A stretch of 56,844 bases of DNA, from positions 1 through 56,844 of the forward strand of contig DATBOX010000141.1 of NCBI GenBank assembly GCA_036561685.1, given 5' to 3'. Positions 15,924 to 40,932 of this stretch are shown in pieces (positions within the stretch are counted from its first letter, which is position 1; every line of letters begins with the position of its first letter). Origin of the DNA: Candidatus Limnocylindrales bacterium. GTDB lineage: Bacteria > Chloroflexota > Limnocylindria > Limnocylindrales > CSP1-4. The position numbers were made by a program, and so were the translations under genes. The notes beneath the pieces were generated by a model that saw only the letters and a list, made by a program, of their open reading frames with translations, was not told where the DNA came from and ran no database searches.

Positions 15924-17246
15924 CTAGGCCGTTCGGCGCGGCTCCCGGTGGCGGCGCCAACGGGCCAGGGCGCGGCCCGTCTCGGGTGCCGTGATCCGCC
16001 GTTGGCCGTAGCGGGCCAGCTGGTAGTCGGCGGCCAGGCGGCGCAGCGGACCGGGTGCGACGTCGGCGCCAGCGTCGGCCAGGCGGCGCGCGTGGCCGGC
16101 CGGCGTCTCGGAGGCGTGCCGCGCGAGGTCGGGATCAGCGGCCAGCAGCTCCAGCGTCGCCAGGTACGCCGTCACCGCGTCGTGCGGTGTGCTCGGGACG
16201 GCCGGGCCGCGACGCCGCGCGGGCCGGGGGACCCGGACGGGCACGACGATGGACCGCTCTTCGACGATGCGCGGCCGATCCTGGGCGTCGCGATGTGGCG
16301 GCCGCAGCCAGCGCAGCACGAGCAGGATGCTCACCGTGATCACGACCATGAGCACGATGGCGATGGTCACCAGCTGGCCCGAGTCCAGGCCCCCGACGCC
16401 GATCCCGCTGCCCGTGCCGCCGCCCGCGTTGGGGACCGTCGCGCTGCCGGGTGTCAGGAGGCCGGCGAGGACACCGCCGGCCGCGATGGGCGGGGCGACC
16501 AGCAGGGCCACGATCGTGAACAGGAGGACGCCGGGCCGCACGATGGCCTCCGCCAGGTCCTCCGGCCGAAGACCGGCCCAGAGGGCGAGCGGCACGCCGA
16601 CCGCGATCAGGGCGAGCGGGACCGCGGCCGTCACCAGGAACCAGGTGCGCCCCGCGCGGTCACGAGGGTCCGCCGTCAGGCCAAGCAGCCGGAGGCGACC
16701 GAAGCCGAGCGCGGCAAACCCGGCGACCACGAAGACGAGCGTGCCCATCCACGCTGAGCCCACGAACGACTGGCGCAGGGTGGCCTCCGGGATGATCGCC
16801 CCGACCAGCCACGGCAGCAGCAGGATCGGCGTCAGGTAGCGCAGCAGGTTGGCGCTCGTCTCCACGTCGTCGAGCGGGTCCCGATGCGCGCCGCCGCGCA
16901 GCACCGCGGCCCCCAGCAGGAGCGCCCCCGGATGCGCCGCCAATGCAGATGGCAGCGCTCCCGCCTGGAGGGCCGTCCAGGTGGCGGGGCTGGCCAGCCA
17001 GCCGATCACGACGACGCCGGCAAGCGCGGCCAGGGCCAGCGGTCGAGGCCAGGTGCGCGGGCGACGCCCGATCCAGATGCCGAGGAGCGCGGCCAGCGTG
17101 AACTCGACCGGTCCCAGCGATGGCTGGTGGCGCATCAGGCCGACCTCGAAGCCCGCGTACACGACGAGCAGCCAGCCGCCCTCCATGGCCGCCTCGACGA
17201 CGGCGAGGCCCGCCGCCCCCAGGTCAGCCCGTCGTGACCAAGACAT
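15924..17246 (-). CDS. Polytopic membrane protein with a C-terminal DUF4129 domain (third member of a MoxR-DUF58 module)
   Basis: About 8 hydrophobic segments, then TAYLATLELL...ASETPAGHARRL...LAADYQLARYG, a DUF4129-like tail. Overlaps the DUF58 gene end by 23 nt. Confidence 0.65.
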   Translation of the reverse strand: MSWSRRADLGAAGLAVVEAAMEGGWLLVVYAGFEVGLMRHQPSLGPVEFTLAALLGIWIGRRPRTWPRPLALAALAGVVVIGWLASPATWTALQAGALPSALAAHPGALLLGAAVLRGGAHRDPLDDVETSANLLRYLTPILLLPWLVGAIIPEATLRQSFVGSAWMGTLVFVVAGFAALGFGRLRLLGLTADPRDRAGRTWFLVTAAVPLALIAVGVPLALWAGLRPEDLAEAIVRPGVLLFTIVALLVAPPIAAGGVLAGLLTPGSATVPNAGGGTGSGIGVGGLDSGQLVTIAIVLMVVITVSILLVLRWLRPPHRDAQDRPRIVEERSIVVPVRVPRPARRRGPAVPSTPHDAVTAYLATLELLAADPDLARHASETPAGHARRLADAGADVAPGPLRRLAADYQLARYGQRRITAPETGRALARWRRHREPRRTA

Positions 17247-30907: not shown

Positions 30908-33900
30908 GTGGAAGTCGCGCTGCTGGGGCCGCTGCGGATCCGGGACGGACCGGCCGATATCGCGCCCGGCGGGCGCCGCCAGCGCCGCCTGCTGGCACGC
31001 CTGGGTCTGGAGGCCGGGCGGGGCGTGTCGTTCGACGAGCTGGAGAACGCGGTATGGGGCGACGAGCCGCCACCGACCGCCCGTCACACCATCGCCGCCC
31101 ACGTGTCGCGGCTGCGTCACCTGGGGCTGTCGATCCCGGCCGCGGGCGACGGCTACCAGCTCGACACGGCCACCGACGTCCTGGCCCTGGAGCGTCTCGC
31201 GGCCGAAGGGCGGGAAGCGCTGCCCTCCGAGCCGCGCCGGGCGATGGGCCTGTTCCGCGACGCCCTCGCCGGGTGGCGCGGCCGGCCCTTCCCCGACCTG
31301 GACCACGTGCCCCTCGGCCAGATCGAGGTGGCCCGCCTGGAGGAGCTGGTGGAGGGCGTGCGCGAGGACCTCCTGGCGGCCGAACTCGACGACGACGCGC
31401 GCGACGGCGGCCTGGTCGCGGTCGCCCGCGGCCTGACCGCCGAACAACCCTATCGCGAACGTCGCTGGGAGCTGCTGATGCTGGCCCTGTACCGGGCGGG
31501 TCGCCAGGCCGAGGCCCTCGACGTCTATGGCGAATGCCGCCGCCGCCTGGTCGACGATCTGGGCATCGAACCCGGCCCCGGCCTCCGGCGCATGCAGCAG
31601 GCGGTCCTGGCGCAGGACCCTGTCCTTGACCCACCGGTCGCCCGTGGCGCCCCCGCGGACCGTCGTCCTCGCCTGCCCGGCACCTCCACCCGCCTCATCG
31701 GACGGTCCCGGGAGCAGGAGGCCCTGGCGGAGGCCTGGACACGGGCCCGGGTCGTGACCCTGGTCGGCCCTCCCGGCGCGGGCAAGACCCGCTTGGCTGT
31801 CGAGGCGGCCCGGAACGCGGCGACCACGGTGTGGTACGTCGCGCTCGACCAGATGTCCCCGGAACGATCCGTGGCCGCCGCGGTCCTTGACGTGGTGGCT
31901 CCCTCCTCGCTGGCGACCGATCCGCGTCAGGGCGTGATCGAGGAGCTCGCGGACGCCACCGGCCTGCTCGTGCTTGACGGCTGTGAGGCCCGGCCGACAG
32001 ACGCCGCTGCGGAGGTCGACGCGGTCGTGGCGGCGTGCCCGGGGGTCCGCGTGTTGACCACCAGCCGTGAGCGCCTGGGGGTCTTCGATGAGGCGCTCAT
32101 CCCGGTCGGGCCGCTGGCCGAGGCGGAGGCCCTGGACCTGCTGGTCGATCGGGCGAAGCTGGTGGATCCGCACTTCGAGTTGCGGCCCGACGAGCTGGCC
32201 ACGGCCGACAGGCTCTGCGGGCTGGTGGATCGCCTGCCCCTGGGCCTGGAGCTCGTGGCCCGCCACCTCCACCTGCTGCGCCTGGATGAGCTGACGCAGC
32301 GCGTGGAGGTGGACCTGAGCCGGTGGGCCGGAGGGCCAACGCGTGGAAGGACGGGCCTGTGGGCGGCCCTCGACGCGAGTGTCGCTCGCCTTGGCCCCCT
32401 GGAGCGGCGGGCGATGGTGGCCCTCGCCGTCATGGTCGCGGATGCCGATGCGGCCCTCATCGCCGAGATCATCGACCCGGCCGATCCACACCTTGACGTC
32501 TTCGATGCCATCGCCCGCCTCGTGGACGCCAGCCTGGTCCAGGTGCGCAGCGCCGACGGCCCCACCCGCTACGAGCTCCTGCGCACGATCGCGGTCCACA
32601 CGCTGGAGACCGCCGACGCCGCGCTCGTGGCGGCCGCGCGCGGGCACTACCGGGACGCCGTGCTCAGGCGCGCCGCTTCGCTGGTCAGGCGACTGGCCAC
32701 CGCGGATCGCCCGGCCACGTTGCAGCTCCTGGACCGTGAGATGCCGCATGTCCGCGCCGTCCTGGCGACATGTGCCGCGTCGCTCGAGTCCGAGGCCGCC
32801 GTCCATGCGCTCGAGGTCGCGGTCGCCATGACCGAGTACTGGCTGGGCCGTCATCCGGCGGAGGGTCTGGAGTGGCTGCGACGGCTCCAGGCGGCCGCGC
32901 CACCGCTCAGTGCCCTGCGCGCCCAGGCGGCGCTGAGCGGCGCGCATCTCGCCTACTGGCTCACCGATTTCGCGCTGGGGCGCGAGATGGGCGAGGAGGC
33001 CCGTGCCCGGTTCGCGGCGATCGGCGATCCCCTCGGGGAAGGCCGGGCGCTGCGGCGTCTCGGGGCGATGGCCGCCGCCACCGATGACGTCGACGGGGCG
33101 CGCGACTACCTGGAGGCCTCGCTGGCCCGTCTCGACGAGGCCGGCGTCGAGCGCGAGATCGGGACCACCCTGCTCCACCTTGGCTCGCTCCTGGCCGACC
33201 AGGGCCTATCGGACGCCGCACGGCCGCTGCTTGCGCGTGCCCTCGCGATCGCCGTCACATCGGGCGACCCGCTGGCACGTGGCCACGCCCTGGCCGCCCT
33301 GAATCTGACCGACTGGAAAGGCGGCCATCTCGAGATGGCGATGGCCGAGGGCGAGGAGGCCCTGACCATCTTCGCCGAGCTCGGCCACAGGCCGACCGAG
33401 GGGAGCGTCAGCTACCGCCTCGCCGCTGTGGCCCGCGGACTCGGTCGGCGCAAGGCAGCCCGGCGCTTCGCGCACCAGGCGATCGTGGCCGGCGATGCGA
33501 GCAGCACCCGCACGACGGTCGCCTTGGGGCACATCAACCTGGCTCGCCTCGACCTGGATGACGGCGACACGGCGGCAGCCGCCGGGCATCTGCACGAAGC
33601 GCTCCAGGCGCTCGATGCCGTCGAGGACCGGTGGGTCCTGGTCGACGCGCTCGAGACAGCGGCCCGCCTGGCTCTGGCGGCGGGCGCGGACGGGGCCGCG
33701 CCACTGCTGGGGGCGGCGGCGGCGATCCGGGCGGCGATCCACCAGCCCGTGGCCCCGACCGAGTCGGACGATCTCGACGCTGCGCACCGTGAGGTCGGCC
33801 AGATACACGCAAGCGGAGCGGCCACGGGCCCGATCGGCATCGCCGCGGCCCATGCTGATGCGCTCAGCATCGTGAGCGACCTGGCACGGCCGACCGCCGC

Positions 33901-33931
33901 CCCGACGCCGCTGCGGCGCGCCCGGGCCTAG
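30908..33931 (+). CDS. AfsR/SARP-family STAND regulator: OmpR-type wHTH + BTAD + NB-ARC P-loop NTPase + TPR
   Basis: N-terminus VALLGPLRI...RRQRRLLARL...GYQL. BTAD (WRGRPF...YRERRWELLMLALYRAGRQAEALDVY). Walker A GPPGAGKT (nt ~31766-31789), Walker B LLVLDGCE. C-terminal ~350 aa of TPR-like helices. GTG start. Confidence 0.86.
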   Translation: MEVALLGPLRIRDGPADIAPGGRRQRRLLARLGLEAGRGVSFDELENAVWGDEPPPTARHTIAAHVSRLRHLGLSIPAAGDGYQLDTATDVLALERLAAEGREALPSEPRRAMGLFRDALAGWRGRPFPDLDHVPLGQIEVARLEELVEGVREDLLAAELDDDARDGGLVAVARGLTAEQPYRERRWELLMLALYRAGRQAEALDVYGECRRRLVDDLGIEPGPGLRRMQQAVLAQDPVLDPPVARGAPADRRPRLPGTSTRLIGRSREQEALAEAWTRARVVTLVGPPGAGKTRLAVEAARNAATTVWYVALDQMSPERSVAAAVLDVVAPSSLATDPRQGVIEELADATGLLVLDGCEARPTDAAAEVDAVVAACPGVRVLTTSRERLGVFDEALIPVGPLAEAEALDLLVDRAKLVDPHFELRPDELATADRLCGLVDRLPLGLELVARHLHLLRLDELTQRVEVDLSRWAGGPTRGRTGLWAALDASVARLGPLERRAMVALAVMVADADAALIAEIIDPADPHLDVFDAIARLVDASLVQVRSADGPTRYELLRTIAVHTLETADAALVAAARGHYRDAVLRRAASLVRRLATADRPATLQLLDREMPHVRAVLATCAASLESEAAVHALEVAVAMTEYWLGRHPAEGLEWLRRLQAAAPPLSALRAQAALSGAHLAYWLTDFALGREMGEEARARFAAIGDPLGEGRALRRLGAMAAATDDVDGARDYLEASLARLDEAGVEREIGTTLLHLGSLLADQGLSDAARPLLARALAIAVTSGDPLARGHALAALNLTDWKGGHLEMAMAEGEEALTIFAELGHRPTEGSVSYRLAAVARGLGRRKAARRFAHQAIVAGDASSTRTTVALGHINLARLDLDDGDTAAAAGHLHEALQALDAVEDRWVLVDALETAARLALAAGADGAAPLLGAAAAIRAAIHQPVAPTESDDLDAAHREVGQIHASGAATGPIGIAAAHADALSIVSDLARPTAAPTPLRRARA

Positions 33932-33955
33932 CGAACCCGGGGTCGCGGTCGAGCC

Positions 33956-34009
33956 GCGATCGGCCCCACCGTTCTCTGCGATCGATCTGCGATCGGCTCC
34001 CCCGACGCT
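33956..34009 (+). promoter_or_regulatory. Candidate SARP-type operator/promoter: three phased GCGATCG repeats plus a GACGCT -10-like hexamer
   Basis: GCGATCGG 33956, GCGATCGA 33978, GCGATCGG 33989 (start-to-start 22 and 11 nt). GACGCT at 34004-34009 lies 8 nt after the last heptamer. The same layout recurs at 36660-36713. Confidence 0.5.
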
Positions 34010-34013
34010 GGTG

Positions 34014-34036
34014 ACCTGCGGCCGTGATCCGCAGGT
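34014..34036 (+). promoter_or_regulatory. Leader hairpin ACCTGCGG-CCGTGAT-CCGCAGGT in the predicted 5' UTR
   Basis: 8-bp stem with a 7-nt loop. The 21-nt core ACCTGCGGCCGTGATCCGCAG is identical at 40185-40205. Confidence 0.45.
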
Positions 34037-34059
34037 GACCTCAAGCGATCGGAGCCCAG

Positions 34060-35253
34060 ATGACGCGCAGACCCGCGCTGACCGGCCTCACCGCCATCGC
34101 CCTTGTCCTGGCCCTCACCGCCTGTTCCGCGGGTGGCGCGGCGGGACCATCATCCGCGGGCGCCGGGAATGGCTCAGCCGCTGGTGGCGGGGCTCCCGCG
34201 TCCGCCGCGAACGCGGGGGGCGGCGGCTCGGCCGGATGTGGCAATCCGGCCGGGGCCACGGTCGGGGCGGCCGGCGGCGCCTATGCCTCGATGCTCGCCG
34301 GCGTCATCTGCGGCATGCCGAACATCGATCCGTGCGCGTATCTGGACCCGGCCAGCGTGCAGGCGCTCTTCGCGGTCACCCTGGACACGCCCACGACCGA
34401 TCACCTGGGCAATTGCACCTGGCCGCTCACCGACCCCTCCGTGGGCGACGGCCTCGAGGTGATCGTCAACGTGGGCCAAGGTGAGGGTCCTCTCGACGCC
34501 GACATGGGTATCGGCGGCGACGCGACCGCCATCAGCGGCATCGGTGACAAGGCCAGCTGGCAGCTGCTGGCGGGCTACTTCCCGCACCTGGGGGCCGTCA
34601 AGGGCGACACCACGTGCGAGCTGACTGCGGGTGGTGGGAACGCGCAGCTGAAGGTTCCGACCAGCGGCACCGGGCCCCTGGCGGGCATCGACCCATCCGC
34701 TGTGCCCGGCTTCATGACCAAGTTCGGCCAGCTCTGCAACCAGATCTTCGCCGGCCTGGCAAAGGGTGGGCCACCGCCATCGCAGGTCGCGTCGCAGACC
34801 ACGCCGCAGCCCAAGGTGGACCCCTGCTCGGTCCTCGCATCAGCGGATGTCCAGGCGCTCTTCAAAGCCGCCCTCGGCGCGCCCCAGAGCCCTCTTACCG
34901 GCGAGTGCGACTGGGCCCTCAGCGACCCGTCGAAAGGTGACGGCGGCCTGACCCTGCACGTGGACCGCAGCCAGGCCGGCCTGGCGCAGGACATGGTCCT
35001 CGCGCCGAAGATGACGAGCCTCTCGGGCGTCGGCGACAGCGCCGAATGGGGCCTCGCCGTGGGCGTCGATCCGCTCCTGATCGCCACCAAGGGCGCCCAC
35101 GGCTGCGAGCTCGCGGTCACCGGCGATCTGACGCAGCTGAACGTGGCCACCGTGGCGGGCATCTACACCACCATCGACCCCTCCGCACTGCCCGGCTTCA
35201 TCCAGCAGCTCGGCGGCCTCTGCACCAAGGTCTTCGCCGGGCTGGGTTCCTGA
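34060..35253 (+). CDS. Secreted lipoprotein with two tandem DUF3558-like domains
   Basis: Signal peptide and lipobox LALTAC, then a Gly/Ala-rich linker. Two ~145-aa repeats each begin DPC and carry 4 aligned Cys. GGAG 6 nt upstream of the ATG. Confidence 0.75.
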   Translation: MTRRPALTGLTAIALVLALTACSAGGAAGPSSAGAGNGSAAGGGAPASAANAGGGGSAGCGNPAGATVGAAGGAYASMLAGVICGMPNIDPCAYLDPASVQALFAVTLDTPTTDHLGNCTWPLTDPSVGDGLEVIVNVGQGEGPLDADMGIGGDATAISGIGDKASWQLLAGYFPHLGAVKGDTTCELTAGGGNAQLKVPTSGTGPLAGIDPSAVPGFMTKFGQLCNQIFAGLAKGGPPPSQVASQTTPQPKVDPCSVLASADVQALFKAALGAPQSPLTGECDWALSDPSKGDGGLTLHVDRSQAGLAQDMVLAPKMTSLSGVGDSAEWGLAVGVDPLLIATKGAHGCELAVTGDLTQLNVATVAGIYTTIDPSALPGFIQQLGGLCTKVFAGLGS

Positions 35254-35277
35254 GTTCCCGGCCCGGCGCACGGCCGG

Positions 35278-35286
35278 TGCTATCAT
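35278..35286 (+). promoter_or_regulatory. Extended -10-like element TGCTATCAT
   Basis: The only AT-rich hexamer in the 110-nt gap upstream of CDS 35364. No convincing -35. Confidence 0.25.
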
Positions 35287-35363
35287 CCCGGCCACCCGAC
35301 GCGCGTGACCGCGTCGCTCCTCGGTGTGACCCGACTCCTCGATGTGCCCGGATCGAATCGGAC

Positions 35364-35747
35364 ATGGATAGCCCTCCCAGCGAGCCGGCCGGCCAGGCCG
35401 ACCAGCCTGCCGTCGACGCCCCGGCGCCTTCGGTCCCCGGATCGACCGGCCCCGGTGAACAAGTACCGCACGTGGCGACCGCAGCCCAGCTGCGACGCTT
35501 CATCAAGTCCCGCCCGTACGTGCCGCTCCACGAGCTGCGCCGGCGCTTCGAGCTGAACGGCCAGGCCGACGACGTGTGTCCCGTGCGCGTCCCTGAAGGC
35601 GTCGTCTACGTCGGGCTGCCCCAGCGCGAGTCCGATCTGCTGGCCGAGCTCGTGCGCTGCGGCGATGTCGGCCTCGAGTTGTGCCGGGATCCGCTCGTGC
35701 CGATCGTGATGGGCGTCTTCCCGATGCGGCCCGTCGTCCGGAGCTGA
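35364..35747 (+). CDS. Small cytoplasmic hypothetical protein (127 aa, Pro/Ala-rich N-terminus)
   Basis: Strong GC3 bias in this frame, and no signal peptide. The conserved-looking core is AAQLRRFIKSRPYVPLHELRRRFELNG...CPVRVPEGVVYVGLP. I do not recognise the family. Confidence 0.55.
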   Translation: MDSPPSEPAGQADQPAVDAPAPSVPGSTGPGEQVPHVATAAQLRRFIKSRPYVPLHELRRRFELNGQADDVCPVRVPEGVVYVGLPQRESDLLAELVRCGDVGLELCRDPLVPIVMGVFPMRPVVRS

Positions 35748-35914
35748 CGCGGCCAGAACCCAGACGGCATCGATCCAGCCGACGCACGGTGTCCCGTGGC
35801 ACCGGCCAGCACGCGGCCGGTTCGTGCCGTTGACCTGGGGGGTCAGCACATCCTGACCTGGCGGGTTCGTATCTGACCCGATCTGGGCTCCCGCGACCGC
35901 GAATCGTCCGAAGC

Positions 35915-36000
35915 TGACCCGGGAGGACACAGGATGGCGAGATCGGCCGCCGAACGGGGCGCGGAGCCCTGCCCCCGTCCGGTACTGACCTCCCGGGTCA
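35915..36000. repeat. Perfect 12-bp inverted repeat TGACCCGGGAGG / CCTCCCGGGTCA with a 62-nt spacer, within a cluster of TGACC motifs
   Basis: Arms at 35915-35926 and 35989-36000. TGACC also occurs at 35831, 35854 and 35874. GAGATCGGCCGC is repeated at 35939 and 36015. Confidence 0.6.
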
Positions 36001-36030
36001 ACGCAGCCGGGGCTGAGATCGGCCGCATAC

Positions 36031-36606
36031 TCAGTCGACCAGGTCGGCGACCTGGAGGGCGATGCCCTCCAGGGCCAGCAGGCCCCGTTTGATCTCCGGC
36101 CCGTCCGGATCGTCGCCGTAGCCGCCGATGGAACCGTCGCCCGCCACGACGCGGTGGCACGGCACCAGCAGCCAGAACGGGTTGCGGCCCATGGCGGCGC
36201 CCACGGCGCGGGCGGCGCCGGGAGCGCCGATGCGGCGGGCCAGGCGCCCGTAACTGGTCACCCTGCCCCGCCCGATGGTGCGCGCCCCTTCGAGGACGCG
36301 CCGGTCCCAGGCCGTGACACCCGACCAGTCAAGCGGCACGTCCTCGAGGGCCGCCGGCTCGCCGTCCAGCGTCGCCCGGACGGCCGAAACGGCCTGACCG
36401 AGGAGACGGCGAGCTTCGCCCGCGCTGGTGCGGTCGACCAGCCGCACATCCGCCCCGAGCCGGCGACGGAGGACCGGCCGGACCGCCGCCGCCGAGCTGC
36501 GAAGCTCGACCGCGAGCACGCCGCGGGCGGTCGCCACGATCACGACGGGCCCCCACGGGGAGGGCAGTGTCGCCGAGGCTGCGGCGAGTGGTCGGGGGTC
36601 GGCCAT
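36031..36606 (-). CDS. ogt: Methylated-DNA--protein-cysteine methyltransferase
   Basis: Active-site LVPCHRVV motif and the preceding HTH (TSYGRLARRIG). Confidence 0.88.
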   Translation of the reverse strand: MADPRPLAAASATLPSPWGPVVIVATARGVLAVELRSSAAAVRPVLRRRLGADVRLVDRTSAGEARRLLGQAVSAVRATLDGEPAALEDVPLDWSGVTAWDRRVLEGARTIGRGRVTSYGRLARRIGAPGAARAVGAAMGRNPFWLLVPCHRVVAGDGSIGGYGDDPDGPEIKRGLLALEGIALQVADLVD

Positions 36607-36659
36607 CCGGCCATCCTGCCAGAGCGTTGCGCGGCCTGTGCCGGATCCGTTGCCGATCG

Positions 36660-36713
36660 GCGATCGGGGGCGCGCTCCATTGCGATCGATCTGCGATCGG
36701 CCGTGGCGATGCT
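36660..36713 (+). promoter_or_regulatory. Second copy of the candidate SARP-type operator/promoter
   Basis: GCGATCGG 36660, GCGATCGA 36682, GCGATCGG 36693 (22 and 11 nt). GATGCT at 36708-36713 lies 8 nt after the last heptamer, ~50 nt before ATG 36763. Confidence 0.5.
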
Positions 36714-36762
36714 GGTGGGCGTTGGCGACCCGCCATCACGACGCAACGACCTGGAGAACCCG

Positions 36763-37407
36763 ATGCGCACGCGGCCCATCATTCGAACGCTGAGCAGCTT
36801 GCTTCTCCTGCCCCTGCTCATCGGTGCCTGCAGCGGTGCAGGTCCGGCCGCGACGACCACCCCTGGTGCACCCGGGACCAGCCCCGCCTCGGTCGGCGGC
36901 GGTGCGACGGGCCTGCCCGATGGCGGCGCGACGACCGGTCCGGCGGCCAGCGGGCCCGTGCGCGGCCACGTGGGCGACAAGCTCCAGTGGTCGATCGACG
37001 GCACCCCGTATGCGGCGACCCTGGTCAAGGTCTTCGACCCGGCGACGGCGACCGGCTCGTCGGATGCGCCGCAGGCGGGTACCCATTGGGTCGGCGCGGA
37101 GATGACCCTGTCCGACGCCCAGGGGAACCCGGCGGACGACTCGGGCGCCCTGGACGGGACCGGATCCGACGGCCAGCGTTACGGCGCGGCCGGGAGCCCG
37201 AACTCCGGCTACCACCTTGGCACGCACGGTGCGTCCGGCGAGGTCTTCCAAGGCTGCACGGCCGTGCCCGGCGGCGAAGGGGGCCAGCTCGGCACCATCT
37301 GCAGCGCCTTCCTTGTCCCCGACGGCGTGACCGTCATGAGCGTCGGATATGGCGTCGAGGGCGTGGATGTCGGCGGCCCCGATGACGCTATCTGGTCGAT
37401 CCCCTGA
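36763..37407 (+). CDS. Secreted lipoprotein, DUF4352/Mpt63-like, paralogue 1
   Basis: Lipobox LLIGAC. GHVGDKL, ATLVKVFDP and WVGAEMTL blocks, 2 conserved Cys, C-terminal AIWSIP. GGAG upstream of ATG 36763. Confidence 0.75.
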   Translation: MRTRPIIRTLSSLLLLPLLIGACSGAGPAATTTPGAPGTSPASVGGGATGLPDGGATTGPAASGPVRGHVGDKLQWSIDGTPYAATLVKVFDPATATGSSDAPQAGTHWVGAEMTLSDAQGNPADDSGALDGTGSDGQRYGAAGSPNSGYHLGTHGASGEVFQGCTAVPGGEGGQLGTICSAFLVPDGVTVMSVGYGVEGVDVGGPDDAIWSIP

Positions 37408-37445
37408 TGCCCCTGCCATCCACCCCACCAGCGATCGGAGTCGAG

Positions 37446-38057
37446 ATGTCGGTGAGAACCCTCTTTCCCCGCGGCCTTTGTGTCGTGGCCCTGGCGATCG
37501 CCCTGGCGGCCTGTGGCGCCACAGGCGCCTCGGGCACGGGCAGCACGTCGTCGGGCGCGGCCGGTCCTACGCTGGCGCCTGGCGGGACCGTGGTGGCGAC
37601 ACCTGCGGGCAGCGGCGCGGTGACCGGCCACGTGGGCGACAAGCTGACGTATCCCGGGAGCAACGTCGACCTGGGCTTCGATGCGACCCTCGTCAAGGTC
37701 TTTGATCCCGCCACCCCGACCTCCGCCTCCACCGAGGCGTTGCCGTCCGGCGCTCGGTGGGTCGGCATCGAGATCACCATCGACAACCACTCGCCGCAGG
37801 CCGGCAATGACTCCTCGGCCATCGACGGGATGGCCTCCGACGGGACCGCCTTGACCACCGACGATGTCTATCAGGGCTTCTCGCGACCCATCGGCGAGTT
37901 CCAGGGCTGCACCGAGAGCAGCTCGCTCGGCGACACGGACGTGCCATACACGCAATGCGAGGCCTTCGTCGTGCCGGATGGCCAGACCCTGACGAAGGTC
38001 GGCTTCCACATCAACCAGCTGGGGGAAACCGATCAGGCCACCTGGACGGTGCCCTGA
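37446..38057 (+). CDS. Secreted lipoprotein, DUF4352/Mpt63-like, paralogue 2
   Basis: Lipobox ALAAC. GHVGDKL, ATLVKVFDP and WVGIEITIDNHS blocks, C-terminal ATWTVP. GATCGGAG upstream of ATG 37446. Confidence 0.78.
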   Translation: MSVRTLFPRGLCVVALAIALAACGATGASGTGSTSSGAAGPTLAPGGTVVATPAGSGAVTGHVGDKLTYPGSNVDLGFDATLVKVFDPATPTSASTEALPSGARWVGIEITIDNHSPQAGNDSSAIDGMASDGTALTTDDVYQGFSRPIGEFQGCTESSSLGDTDVPYTQCEAFVVPDGQTLTKVGFHINQLGETDQATWTVP

Positions 38058-38059
38058 TC

Positions 38060-40168
38060 ATGCGTACCCGGTGGCTCGTCGCGCTGCTGCTGACGGCCCT
38101 GTTGGCCAGTGCCTGCGGCGCCGCCACGACCACCCCGGGAGCGGCGAGCCCGGCCCCGAGCGGGCCGGCCAGCGCCATCGCCGCCCACCAGGTCCCACTC
38201 GGAGCGACCGCGCCCGTCGACGATGCGACATGGGCCCTGGCCGAGCGATTGACGGAAGACACCTACACCGCCGACACCACCGGTGCCATGCAGACGGCCC
38301 TCGCCCGCGCCGGTATCGCGGTCGTCGCCGATGCGAGCACCGACCCCGGCACGGACGCGCCCGAGGTCTCCCTGACGGGGCCCAGGAGCCCGTTCGAGCT
38401 GCTCGACTTCCAGGCCCATGCCCTGGCCGTGGGAGCCTGGGGTGGGGCGGGGTGGACGGGCGCCGAGCTCGATTCGGTCGTGCCCCTCCCGGCCGGCCTC
38501 TCCGGCGAAGCGCCGACCTCCGTGCTGCTGGCGGCCTACGTGGCCGCCGTGGCCACGCCGGGGGCAGCTCTCGCCCGCGCGCTCATGGCCGGCCAGGACC
38601 TGCGCGATCCAGCGACCGCCCGCTTCCCGGCCGTTGTCTTCGTCCTGTTCGTCTCCGACCTCGTGACCGACGGCGGCCGACTGGCCGGCCCAAGCGCGAG
38701 TCCGAGCGGGGCGGCCGGGCGCACGGAGCTGCTCAGTCTCGCAGCCCCTGATGCTGCGCCCGTCAAGCTCGCGGTGGCGGTCGATACCGTCTGCTCCGAT
38801 ACGGCGAACTGGATGAAGGGCATGCTGGACGGCCTGTTCAACGCCCTCAAGCTGGCCACCCCGGACAACGTGCCGGGGGCGATCGTCGCGTCGATCTGGA
38901 ACTGGATCGTCGACGTGGCCCATACCCTCGTCAACAACCTCATCGCGAGTGTCACGGCCGCGGTCATGGGGACCATCCGGAGCATCGGAGCGGCCATCGC
39001 CGCGGTCGCCGAGCAGGTGGCCACGTTCCTGCCGTACGCCGTGAAGGTCATCGCCAGCGGCGGGAACTCAGGGGCGGCCGGATTCCAACTTGGCAGCGTC
39101 CCGCTGCGGGGCACCTTCACCGCCGTCGTGAGCGCCGGCGACCTGCCGAGCCTGCCGGCCGTCCTCACCGATTGCGCTAAGACCGTCGACGTCGACGTGC
39201 CCGACTTCCGGGCGAAGCAGGTGCCGGTCACGTGGGGCCCCATCGAGTCGCTCCCCGACCCGCTGCTGGCGCCGATCGACTCGGCCGCCACGAACACCGT
39301 GACCGATGACACGGGCACCACGACGTGGGGCTTTCTGACCAGCCGTGATCCCGGCGATCCGACCGGCGAGCCGGTCGGTCAGCTCGATACCATGCCCATC
39401 GCGGTCCACCGTCCGGAGATCGAACAGGCCCGGACCAAGCTGACCGATGCCCTGCTCGGTTGGATCCCGCCCCTGGTCAAGCCGTTCGTCCTGGCCCTGT
39501 TCGCGCCCTATCTCGACGGACTGGAGGGCCGCCTGAACGCCCTGCTCGACGCGCGGGGCACGGGCACGGTGGACCTCAAGTACCACGAGAAGGCGCCACC
39601 GACGCCCTCGCCATCGACGACCCCGAGCGGATCCGGGGCCTGCGCGGTGACGCAACCCGCGGCGACCGACCAGGGCAGCCTGACCATCAAGTCGACGACG
39701 ATCATCCCACCGGGCCAGATCGACCTCGGCGAGCACGGCGGCGAGAACGACGCCGGCAGCGCCCCGCTCAGCGTCGCCGTGGGCGCAGACGGGTCGCTTA
39801 GCGGCCAGTTCACCCTCACGTCGCAGAACCACTTCGAGGCCCAGGGCATCAGCCAGGGGACGGAAGACACGACCGTCGTGGAGAACGGCAGCGTCGGCGG
39901 CACGCTGTGCGCCCTCGCCCTCCGGTTCCTCAACGAGACGATCACCGCCTGCAAGGCGACCGGCGTCCAGGCCGAACTCGGTTGCGGGCCGGTGAACACC
40001 ACGATCGACCTGACTGGGCTCATGCCGGCCGAGCCCCTGGGCGCGCCCACCGTGTCGGGCAAGACGTTCACTTGGTCGATCTCGTACGAGAACGGCTTCG
40101 ATGCCGGCTTCGGCGGGCTCGGCGGCGAGGTCCAATCGACGCTGACGATGACCCTGACCGCGCCTTAG
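38060..40168 (+). CDS. Large orphan lipoprotein (702 aa) with a central hydrophobic/amphipathic helical segment
   Basis: Lipobox LLASAC. The ATG lies 2 nt after the upstream stop. Strong GC3 bias throughout. I recognise no family. Confidence 0.7.
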   Translation: MRTRWLVALLLTALLASACGAATTTPGAASPAPSGPASAIAAHQVPLGATAPVDDATWALAERLTEDTYTADTTGAMQTALARAGIAVVADASTDPGTDAPEVSLTGPRSPFELLDFQAHALAVGAWGGAGWTGAELDSVVPLPAGLSGEAPTSVLLAAYVAAVATPGAALARALMAGQDLRDPATARFPAVVFVLFVSDLVTDGGRLAGPSASPSGAAGRTELLSLAAPDAAPVKLAVAVDTVCSDTANWMKGMLDGLFNALKLATPDNVPGAIVASIWNWIVDVAHTLVNNLIASVTAAVMGTIRSIGAAIAAVAEQVATFLPYAVKVIASGGNSGAAGFQLGSVPLRGTFTAVVSAGDLPSLPAVLTDCAKTVDVDVPDFRAKQVPVTWGPIESLPDPLLAPIDSAATNTVTDDTGTTTWGFLTSRDPGDPTGEPVGQLDTMPIAVHRPEIEQARTKLTDALLGWIPPLVKPFVLALFAPYLDGLEGRLNALLDARGTGTVDLKYHEKAPPTPSPSTTPSGSGACAVTQPAATDQGSLTIKSTTIIPPGQIDLGEHGGENDAGSAPLSVAVGADGSLSGQFTLTSQNHFEAQGISQGTEDTTVVENGSVGGTLCALALRFLNETITACKATGVQAELGCGPVNTTIDLTGLMPAEPLGAPTVSGKTFTWSISYENGFDAGFGGLGGEVQSTLTMTLTAP

Positions 40169-40184
40169 GCATCCCAACCTGGCC

Positions 40185-40205
40185 ACCTGCGGCCGTGATC
40201 CGCAG
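40185..40205 (+). promoter_or_regulatory. Second copy of the 21-nt hairpin core (ACCTGCGGCCGTGATCCGCAG) in the gap before paralogue 3
   Basis: Identical to 34014-34034. The following ~30 nt, including GATCGGAG-N6-ATG, also align with the 34037-34062 leader. Confidence 0.45.
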
Positions 40206-40226
40206 CTCACTCTGATCGGAGTCGAT

Positions 40227-40853
40227 ATGTCGATGCGAACCTTCGTGTCTCGATGCCTGTCCATCGCGGCCCTGAGCATGGTTCTCGCCGCCTGCGCCGG
40301 GGCAGGCTCGCCGGGTGCCGCCAGCCAACCGGCGGACGGGGGAAGCCAGACCCTGCAGCCAGGCGGGACCGCGGCCGCCGCCCCTGCCGGCAGTGGCGCC
40401 GAGCCGGTGACCGGCCATGTCGGCGACAAGCTCACCTTCTCCGAGTACGGCGGTGCCCAGGCCGACGGCACGCTCGTCAAGGTCCTCGACCCGGTCACCG
40501 ACACGGACCAGTACCCGGCCGTGCTCCCGACCGGGACACACTGGGTCGGGGTGGAGCTGATCCTCGACAACCACTCCCCCGACTACATGAACGAGGCGTC
40601 CCAGGTGGATGCGACCACCTCCGCTGGCGCCACGATCATGGAGGGCGACCCGGCGAACGGGAACAGCGGAATCTACGGCTACGCGGGATGCACCCCGACC
40701 GACGCCGGCAACGAGCAGGACGTCCAGCCCTTCACCCACTGCTACGGCTTCGTGGTGCCCGACGGCCAAACGCTCACCCAGGTGGGGGTGAAGGTCGGGG
40801 AGGTCGCGACGTTCGACCGGGTGACCGACGAGGCGATCTGGAAGGTGCCGTGA
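40227..40853 (+). CDS. Secreted lipoprotein, DUF4352/Mpt63-like, paralogue 3
   Basis: Lipobox VLAAC. GHVGDKL, TLVKVLDP and WVGVELILDNHS blocks, FVVPDGQTLT, C-terminal AIWKVP. Confidence 0.78.
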   Translation: MSMRTFVSRCLSIAALSMVLAACAGAGSPGAASQPADGGSQTLQPGGTAAAAPAGSGAEPVTGHVGDKLTFSEYGGAQADGTLVKVLDPVTDTDQYPAVLPTGTHWVGVELILDNHSPDYMNEASQVDATTSAGATIMEGDPANGNSGIYGYAGCTPTDAGNEQDVQPFTHCYGFVVPDGQTLTQVGVKVGEVATFDRVTDEAIWKVP

Positions 40854-40918
40854 TCTCCGCGCCACACGAGCTCAGCCGGGCGGGTCGTACGCTGACGGTG
40901 ACCCTGACCGCGCCATAG
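40854..40918 (+). pseudogene. Remnant of the 3' end of a second copy of the 702-aa lipoprotein gene
   Basis: gctgacggtgaccctgaccgcgccatag (40891-40918) matches gctgacgatgaccctgaccgcgccttag (40141-40168). Both read TLT(M/V)TLTAP-stop. Confidence 0.6.
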
Positions 40919-40932
40919 GCGATGATGCGGGC

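Follow-up and report, generated by a model that had tools for sequence, protein, structure and literature searches.

Regulators of the SARP type have, to our knowledge, been studied almost solely as antibiotic-synthesis switches of actinomycetes, and EmbR of Mycobacterium tuberculosis is the precedent for a SARP that acts on cell-envelope functions rather than on antibiotics. A second class of ATP-dependent switches, that of MalT, is represented by a protein that senses maltotriose. For AfsR of Streptomyces coelicolor, cryo-EM has defined the target, the afs box, as two 11-bp direct repeats, 22 bp in all, lying from -40 to -19, with each protomer contacting the first 8 bp of a repeat; the NOD and TPR parts of the protein inhibit activation and ATP binding relieves the inhibition (PMC10936776). 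Here we describe a locus of comparable build in Candidatus Limnocylindrales, an uncultured soil bacterium of the phylum Chloroflexota, in which a gene for a 1007-aa SARP regulator is followed by two promoters carrying a phased-repeat box and by the genes of five lipoproteins. It lies in a window of 56,844 bp, the whole of one contig (DATBOX010000141.1) of a metagenome-assembled genome (MAG). What the locus presents is an AfsR-type SARP outside the actinomycetes together with a previously undescribed, widely distributed lipoprotein cassette, and we put at roughly 0.6 the probability that the two form a regulon in which the SARP would control the cassette. The first-pass annotation of this DNA had viewed it implicitly as that of an actinomycete; the organism belongs to the Chloroflexota, despite a G+C content of 69-75% in the window.

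The AfsR-type regulator and the promoter box

The main features of the locus are these:

30908-33931, plus strand: SARP regulator, 1007 aa, with winged helix-turn-helix (wHTH), BTAD, NOD P-loop ATPase and TPR
33945-33998, plus strand: repeat box of the first promoter, P1, made of phased heptamers
34004-34009, plus strand: putative -10 hexamer of P1, GACGCT, 8 nt past the last heptamer
34014-34059, plus strand: P1 leader, with a possible stem-loop and a ribosome-binding region
34060-35253, plus strand: LppA, lipoprotein of 397 aa with two tandem DUF3558-like domains
36660-36702, plus strand: repeat box of the second promoter, P2, with a putative -10 hexamer, GATGCT, at 36708-36713
36763-37407, plus strand: LpB1, MPT63-like lipoprotein paralogue of 214 aa (family profile E 2e-54)
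37446-38057, plus strand: LpB2, MPT63-like lipoprotein paralogue of 203 aa (by AlphaFold2 and Foldseek)
38060-40168, plus strand: P702, lipoprotein of 702 aa from a Chloroflexota-wide uncharacterised family
40227-40853, plus strand: LpB3, MPT63-like lipoprotein paralogue of 208 aa (family profile E 1e-81)

The regulator has the parts of a large AfsR-type SARP, an N-terminal OmpR-type wHTH with BTAD, a central NOD P-loop and a C-terminal TPR region. Pfam assigns Trans_reg_C (PF00486, 27.5 bits with a cut-off of 26.2) and BTAD (PF03704, E 1.1e-32); AAA_16 scores 30.8 bits, slightly below its cut-off of 32.6, and TPR_12 is matched at E 2.7e-4. The best relatives in the PDB are AfsR (8K60, E 1.8e-31) and EmbR (2FEZ, E 3e-25), and the alignment with 8K60 extends through residue 562 and brings the Walker A motif GPPGAGKT together with that of AfsR. 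Pfam domains, the NCBIfam AfsR model and 8K60 thus agree on the 1007-aa wHTH-BTAD-NB-ARC-TPR protein that the first-pass annotation described. The AfsR model, the equivalog NF053617, aligns over residues 4-903 at 151.8 bits against a cut-off of 1430, which does not amount to orthology, and the protein is best regarded as a distant AfsR homologue of the same architecture and not as AfsR itself.

The domain order wHTH, BTAD, NOD P-loop ATPase, TPR is shared with AfsR, but AfsR comes from the Actinomycetota, its target is a small pleiotropic regulator of antibiotic synthesis whereas the candidate targets here are lipoprotein operons, and no AfsK-like kinase was seen beside the present regulator. 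EmbR has a homologous SARP module but carries a C-terminal FHA domain in place of NOD and TPR, is switched by the kinase PknH and acts on arabinosyltransferases rather than on lipoproteins.

The 56.8 kb of the window contain only two exact copies of the 21-mer TGCGATCGATCTGCGATCGGC, at 33977 and 36681, where 0.01 matches would be expected by chance even at three or fewer mismatches. GCGATCG heptamers begin at 33956, 33978 and 33989 in P1 and at 36660, 36682 and 36693 in P2, that is at offsets 0, +22 and +33 in both, and P1 has an extra degenerate heptamer, GCGGTCG, at 33945. The core of either box is a 22-bp element, at 33977-33998 in P1 (TGCGATCGATC followed by TGCGATCGGCT) and at 36681-36702 in P2 (TGCGATCGATC followed by TGCGATCGGCC), composed of two 11-bp direct repeats, each of which is TGCGATCG plus three variable bases, or 8 conserved + 3. 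The exact 21-mer and the identical 22/11 heptamer spacing bear out the earlier remark that both lipoprotein units carry the same phased-repeat box. The third copy of GCCGTGATCCGC, at 15988, falls within coding sequence and was dismissed as chance.

Eight nucleotides past the last heptamer stands a NANNNT hexamer (GACGCT in P1, GATGCT in P2), and this layout is present in all the box promoters considered here. With the T of the hexamer set as position -7, the box spans about -39 to -18, and transcription is predicted to start at about 34016 (P1) and 36720 (P2). The register finds independent support in two relatives because their layout is leaderless: at L129:9962-10003 and L127:9908-9950 (L numbers denote the loci compared) the order is heptamer, 8 nt, hexamer, 7 nt and the ATG of a P702 homologue, an arrangement that would imply leaderless mRNAs. 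A scan of the window for consensus sigma-70 promoters and terminators was uninformative at 72% G+C.

By sequence the box has the marks of a SARP target, namely 11-bp-phased direct repeats that overlap the -35 region close to a -10, and it would seem to match the afs box closely in repeat length, in the 8+3 pattern and in position. P1 and P2 share with the afsS promoter an element of 22 bp in which an 11-bp direct repeat occurs twice, the first 8 bp of each copy conserved and the last 3 free, and which overlaps the -35 region directly upstream of a weak -10; they differ from it in an additional upstream phased heptamer pair. No box was found upstream of 30908 when the window was scanned for one, and autoregulation of the SARP through a box of its own was rejected.

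In the mechanism we favour, two SARP protomers would sit side by side on the 22-bp element of two TGCGATCG+3 repeats, which would replace the -35 and ends 5 nt (the last heptamer 8 nt) upstream of the weak NANNNT -10, and the upstream phased heptamer pair may hold a second dimer. The NOD ATPase and the TPR would probably auto-inhibit the DNA-binding module, as they do in AfsR, until ATP, perhaps also a ligand, is bound. RNA polymerase would then be recruited to P1, for LppA and perhaps the neighbouring 127-aa gene, and to P2, for LpB1-LpB2-P702-LpB3. The products would be exported, lipid-anchored and disulfide-containing proteins (DUF3558-like, MPT63-like with an Ig fold, and P702), most likely joined in one extracytoplasmic binding or scaffold complex. 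The seating of the SARP on its element is read from the sequence, and the later steps we infer.

Conservation of the box and exchange of the regulator

A scan of GTDB genomes for three heptamers returned mostly chance matches among those listed, since HIP1, a cyanobacterial repeat, has GCGATCG as its core and the pattern is common in Pseudanabaena and other cyanobacteria; the scan is not to be read as a genome-wide count. It yielded at least four relevant Chloroflexota assemblies, and a JGI contig supplied a fifth. Throughout these five related assemblies (L064/L097, L074, L045, L129 and L060) the SARP orthologue, the box and the spacing are kept, always 5' of lipoprotein genes, which is the synteny that the first-pass annotation had looked to for its regulon. 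The orthologues are 81-93% identical in wHTH-BTAD and 76-94% in NOD-TPR (L064, L129, L045, L074). SARP and box stand in tandem in the window, L064, L074, L045 and L129, divergently in L060, and with the SARP downstream at a further locus, L142.

L064 and L097, neighbouring pieces of one 2.0-Mb contig, carry the SARP (86% identical), the P1 box, an additional 318-aa lipoprotein gene, LppA (93%), the 127-aa gene (98%) and ogt, and onward the P2 box with a leader, an LpB3-like gene (76%), LpB2 (89%), P702 (59%), a thioesterase gene, panB and panC. L074 combines SARP, box, a single-domain LppA, an LpB1-like gene and P702 in one unbroken unit that has neither the 127-aa gene nor ogt, and L045 has SARP, box and a 329-aa lipoprotein gene. 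The SARP of L129 is 93% identical and both boxes are present, the second directly 5' of P702; in L060 the box faces away from the SARP start, ahead of a DUF3558-like lipoprotein gene. A second, small SARP-like gene (L060:3173-4009, 278 aa, minus strand) lies near this divergent pair, and L060:4107-7910 encodes a 1267-aa protein with a Gly/Ser-rich C-terminal tail. The orthologous P2 of L097 and L129 retains the heptamers, and an alignment of seven promoters from six assemblies shows variable flanks around three invariant heptamers and an invariant TCTGCGATCGG core.

A wider search covered about 363 kb from Limnocylindrales loci and asked for a pair of heptamers at a distance of 11 nt with no more than one mismatch. 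Boxes that precede lipoprotein genes of the cassette turned up at L003, L124, L127/L137, L134, L142, L145 and L146 (twice). Every perfect double heptamer in these sequences stands just 5' of a lipoprotein gene of the same families; the box promoters number 17, a few of them with one mismatch, and the three other one-mismatch sites are all in coding sequence. At L146:18081-18766, on the same 2.1-Mb contig as L003, a box and a related leader precede an LpB gene that stands alone, with 6 kb between it and the closest P702, and by this gene the box is the apparent mark of a multi-locus regulon.

Homologous cassettes are found beside a different regulator at L001, L125, L143, L144, L147, L004, L133 and L138, where a 930-960-aa AAA_16-GerE STAND protein of the LuxR/MalT type takes the place of the SARP, and the two-heptamer search found the GCGATCG box at none of the eight. 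Another motif, GGGAWTCMCCGGAT, is present in five of them (L001:9912, L125:2962, L133:991, L143:8597 and 9299, L144:5097), just past the regulator stop codon and about 18 nt upstream of a GATAcGGT-like hexamer; it had no match in L147 and no clear match in L004 or L138. We regard it as a candidate binding site of the LuxR/MalT-type class. The MalT/LAL-family proteins resemble the present regulator in uniting a STAND ATPase, a TPR-like sensor and a DNA-binding output, and in their equivalent position beside homologous cassettes (L001, L125, L143, L144, L147, L004, L142), but their DNA-binding part is a C-terminal GerE helix-turn-helix rather than an N-terminal wHTH-BTAD and the motif is GGGAWTCMCCGGAT rather than tandem repeats. 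The case for the SARP as reader of the tandem repeats is strongest in this co-variation of regulator class and promoter motif.

In six of the nine loci with full 10-kb flanks the gene right next to the cassette encodes a DNA-binding STAND regulator, compared with a background in the same flanks of about one AAA_16 gene per 45 kb (rough binomial p ~1e-6). Across the order the cassette appears always to be tied to a dedicated motif, each STAND type with its own (none at L147, and L004 and L138 unclear), and usually to an adjacent STAND regulator. Two loci are less regular. At L128 a divergent SARP-like gene (32-35% identical) faces the cassette and there is no box, and at L142 a MalT-type regulator lies upstream, followed by box and cassette, with a SARP (57-65% identical) downstream and with a box that has a different spacer and no upstream heptamer.

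The lipoprotein cassette and its rearrangement

All five exported proteins of the window have an N-terminal hydrophobic segment and a lipobox cysteine (LTAC22, IGAC23, LAAC23, ASAC19 and LAAC23, the first in LppA, the second in LpB1 and the last in LpB3) that is conserved in each family alignment, and the lipoprotein signal peptides of the earlier description therefore hold for five of five. LppA is an internal tandem duplication of one domain and has six invariant cysteines. It gave no Pfam match even at E<=10, while 17 of its 35 homologues match PF12079 (DUF3558; best E 2.5e-5), so that the tandem structure first proposed for it stands and the DUF3558 label reaches it through its homologues. 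In M. abscessus the SigM/ESX-4 regulon is enriched for DUF3558, a domain of unknown function (PMC13491425). The DUF3558 lipoproteins of Actinomycetes are small, like the single domains of LppA, but here the domain comes as a tandem pair or in fusion with an MPT63-like domain, and no ESX or WXG genes lie near the present locus.

The second family comprises LpB1, LpB2 (38% identical to LpB1) and LpB3, which shares 76% identity with the gene that opens the P2 operon of L097. LpB2 starts at 37446 and not at 37407, a start that goes with a repeat of the ribosome-binding region and with an NCBI gene model of the same 203 aa (locus tag VID25_08815). Its AlphaFold2 core has a pLDDT above 90, and the sole significant PDB match by Foldseek is MPT63 (1LMI; E 1e-4, probability 1.0, target TM 0.64), with 4LES as the second hit, which gives LpB2 the predicted structure of an MPT63-type beta-sandwich. 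None of LpB1-3 matched PF11611 (DUF4352) at E<=10, a single one of 74 family members did so at E 0.053, and the family profile found nothing significant among PDB sequences; of the DUF4352/Mpt63-like label once attached to the three paralogues, then, the fold survives and the Pfam assignment does not. Both MPT63/DUF4352 proteins and the LpB proteins are exported beta-sandwiches, but the latter are lipid-anchored, have a conserved cysteine pair and show no membership at the sequence level.

P702, formerly taken for an orphan, has 126 homologues by word-based search, and a profile search of 1.84 billion representatives gave at least 720 clusters, 346 of them at E<=1e-30. Those relatives that have a source name are all from Limnocylindrales or Chloroflexota, and none has a functional name. 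The AlphaFold2 model (pLDDT 78.8) opens with an alpha/beta domain, followed by a Pro/Ser linker of low confidence and a long helical hairpin (241-321). Beyond these lie a beta domain, another helical hairpin and, at the C terminus, a domain whose strands are 16-20 residues long. The model had no Foldseek match at E<=1e-3 in PDB or BFVD; weak matches to OmpA-like barrels, PsbO and Ig-like chaperones concerned the C-terminal long-strand beta domain only and were not used. Sixty-six family members contained no Pfam domain, ten distant relatives gave one unrelated VWD fusion, and among PDB sequences the profile hit nothing but the heavy chain of botulinum toxin, at E 1.

No catalytic or ligand-binding family was recognised among the cassette proteins (Pfam E<=10, with 66 P702 members). 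PADLOC had no defence-system match for the lipoproteins (LppA, LpB2, P702) and only marginal P-loop or HTH matches for the regulators; the Pfam and NCBIfam scans took in LpB1-3, the PADLOC scan among them LpB2 only.

The three families are closely coupled. Two nucleotides separate the LpB2 stop from the P702 start in the window, the corresponding genes of relatives overlap or lie up to 10 nt apart, and the gene directly 5' of P702 is almost always LpB or LppA-like. In P0238 (L142:8075-9340), a lipoprotein of 421 aa, an LppA-type domain (66% identical) and an LpB-type domain (52%) are naturally fused; the two are otherwise unrelated in sequence. Because of this fusion, the tight coupling of LpB with P702 and the conserved cysteines kept in all three families, we suggest that the products act as one extracytoplasmic complex; that they form an inducible surface binding or scaffold complex is offered with low confidence. 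Proteins of 413-447 aa like P0238 number five to six in the list of LppA homologues.

The composition of the cassette varies between relatives:

Window, after the P2 box: LpB1-LpB2-P702-LpB3
L097, after the P2 box: LpB3-LpB2-P702
L129, after the P2 box: P702 directly
L074, after the P1 box: LppA-LpB1-P702

Judged by these gene orders, the composition is evidently reshuffled quickly. Residues 201-350 of P702 (window 38660-39110, the linker and the long helical hairpin) are 26-46% identical to those of L097 and L129, where neighbouring genes are 86-99% identical, and this divergence points to diversifying selection or recombination between paralogues.

The remaining features of the locus are a small gene, a repair gene and two repeats:

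35364-35747, plus strand: gene of 127 aa without signal peptide or family match
36031-36606, minus strand: ogt, methylated-DNA-protein-cysteine methyltransferase (PF01035, PCHR motif), divergent from P2
40179-40226, plus strand: P1-type leader in a promoter-less copy that precedes LpB3 (88% repeat)
40889-40920, plus strand: duplicated 3' end of the P702 gene (...TLTVTLTAP*; 32 nt, 94%)

The P1 leader is conserved in relatives, and its 34008-34039 recurs at 40179-40210 with 88% identity. It contains a possible stem-loop, ACCTGCGG-CCGTGAT-CCGCAGGT, and the ribosome-binding region AGCGATCGGAG. The repeated sequence of the leader hairpin formerly said to be shared by two genes is real, but the structure is not supported and was rejected as an established RNA element: folding z-scores ran from -1.9 to +0.75 in five motif-bearing leaders (-1.26 for P1), RNAalifold showed no covariation, the stem register varies between relatives, and Rfam had no match to the leader. 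RNAalifold favours another pairing, of GUGAUCCGC with GCGAUCG beside the Shine-Dalgarno, at wholly invariant positions. GCGATCG indeed recurs right 5' of the Shine-Dalgarno (AGCGATCGGAG) at 34045-34055 and 37431-37441 and in the leaders of L097, L074 and L045; the conserved leader motif GUGAUCCGC is its complement, and all positions are invariant.

The leader copy ahead of LpB3 begins at the CTGG of the -10 region and lacks the repeat box, whereas in L097 an LpB3-type leader and gene stand directly behind the P2 box. The 3' end of P702 (40139-40170) is repeated at 40889-40920 over 32 nt at 94%, which is what the first-pass annotation saw as a decayed gene fragment, and beyond the LpB3 region follow a thioesterase gene and panB/panC; in L097 the thioesterase gene comes right after P702. 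The duplication and the promoter-less leader are the scar of the rearrangement that placed LpB3.

The ogt gene (PF01035, E 3.6e-28, with the PCHR active-site motif in its translation) is, as first noted, oppositely oriented in the locus; it is found in L097 and L129 and absent from L074, and is probably a passenger. DNA-repair genes adjoin cassettes in unrelated arrangements elsewhere too, with AlkZ-like glycosylases at L127:8712-9866 and L001:5528-6640 besides the ogt of the window, which may be coincidence. The 127-aa protein, already described as small and cytoplasmic, has no hydrophobic segment and no match in Pfam (E<=10), NCBIfam or PADLOC. Identity to its L097 counterpart is 97.6%, against 86% for the SARP, and the arrangement of L074 lacks it; in the comparison with L097 its gene is the second best conserved of the neighbourhood, behind panB.

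Alternative readings and what the regulon would mean

Several points weigh against a SARP-controlled regulon. The link between SARP and box is inferred from sequence, in an uncultured organism; the count of boxes applies to the 56,844-bp window, a single contig and not a genome; and the similarity of P1 and P2 (77 nt at 70%) is partly due to promoter duplication, so that their conservation is not fully independent. At L142, where a MalT-type protein lies upstream and a SARP downstream, the assignment of the regulator is ambiguous. P702 has no relative of known function by sequence or structure (Pfam, PDB sequences, Foldseek against PDB and BFVD), and nothing in the family and structure scans points to a ligand or to a biochemical role of the lipoproteins. 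Finally, the box promoters at L003, L145, L146 (two) and L127 have no SARP within 10 kb, and the module is therefore not self-contained, as it was once described; at such loci the box would be read by a SARP acting in trans, in the manner of AfsR, or else by some other winged-helix factor. Of the single regulon under a STAND switch first proposed, this self-containment is the part that fails, and the synteny, the invariant heptamers, the afs-box geometry and the lack of the box at LuxR-type loci support its core.

One alternative keeps the regulator link and changes its meaning. The cassette might be a substrate-capture module, with the STAND protein sensing an intracellular metabolite and inducing binding lipoproteins that feed a transporter encoded elsewhere. 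STAND regulators of the MalT/GutR type are inducer-gated (PMC10936776), MalT-type regulators flank sister cassettes, ABC transporter genes lie near some cassettes, and a catalytic domain is detectable in no cassette protein. We nevertheless think this unlikely, as the cassettes have no consistent link to any transporter, hydrolase or solute-binding family, no ligand-binding family was recognised, and a hypervariable P702 segment and quick turnover of paralogues are unusual for nutrient-binding proteins.

The box could instead be read by another winged-helix activator, such as a response regulator of the OmpR/PhoB type encoded elsewhere, the SARP regulating something else or being a coincidental neighbour. 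Proteins of this type bind 11-bp-phased direct repeats that replace the -35, so the geometry of the pho box is similar; the boxes that stand far from any SARP are what this explanation would predict, and an OmpR-type response regulator lies about 6 kb upstream at L142. Yet the gene tables of the loci show no response regulator that recurs beside the cassettes, the SARP is kept beside the box in three different gene orders, the LuxR-STAND loci that lack the SARP also lack the box, and the 8+3 repeat structure and the distance to the -10 fit the AfsR complex, all of which makes such an activator distinctly unlikely.

As to what the cassette does, a more speculative and improbable proposal is that P702, the MPT63-like and the DUF3558-like proteins form an inducible envelope recognition or defence coat, each copy of the cassette under an NLR-like STAND factor of its own, AfsR-type or MalT-type, which would respond to a cue inside the cell of attack by phages or competitors and turn on a quickly diversifying set of surface lipoproteins. 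It fits because the centre of P702 is hypervariable, the LpB paralogues turn over and a DUF4352 domain, that of mycobacterial Mpr, has been implicated in membrane-level phage resistance (PMC12596739).

That the box is merely a duplicated promoter/leader segment or an alternative-sigma -35-like element with no dedicated activator, beside STAND genes that are abundant anyway, draws on the 77 nt shared by P1 and P2, the third copy of the leader 5' of LpB3, the clear rearrangement and duplication of the cassettes and the many AAA_16 proteins of these genomes, but it is very improbable when heptamers and spacing are exact where P702 is only ~50% identical and the surroundings have diverged, a tandem 11-bp repeat is unlike a sigma -35 element, the LpB3 leader copy without a box shows the two to be separable, DNA-binding STAND genes adjoin the cassettes far above background, and regulator type and motif type co-vary.

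If the SARP does control the cassette, an AfsR-type regulator in the Chloroflexota, an abundant and largely uncultured phylum of soil and freshwater, appears to be wired to exported lipoproteins. The candidate binding box can be read straight from the sequence and gives testable promoters for a clade that has no genetic system. Three protein families without Pfam models are defined here, one of them with at least 720 sequence clusters, and together they form a recurrent cassette. Its regulator appears to have been swapped between two STAND classes along with the promoter motif, and the swap would be a natural experiment on the co-evolution of NLR-like transcription factors and their cis-elements.

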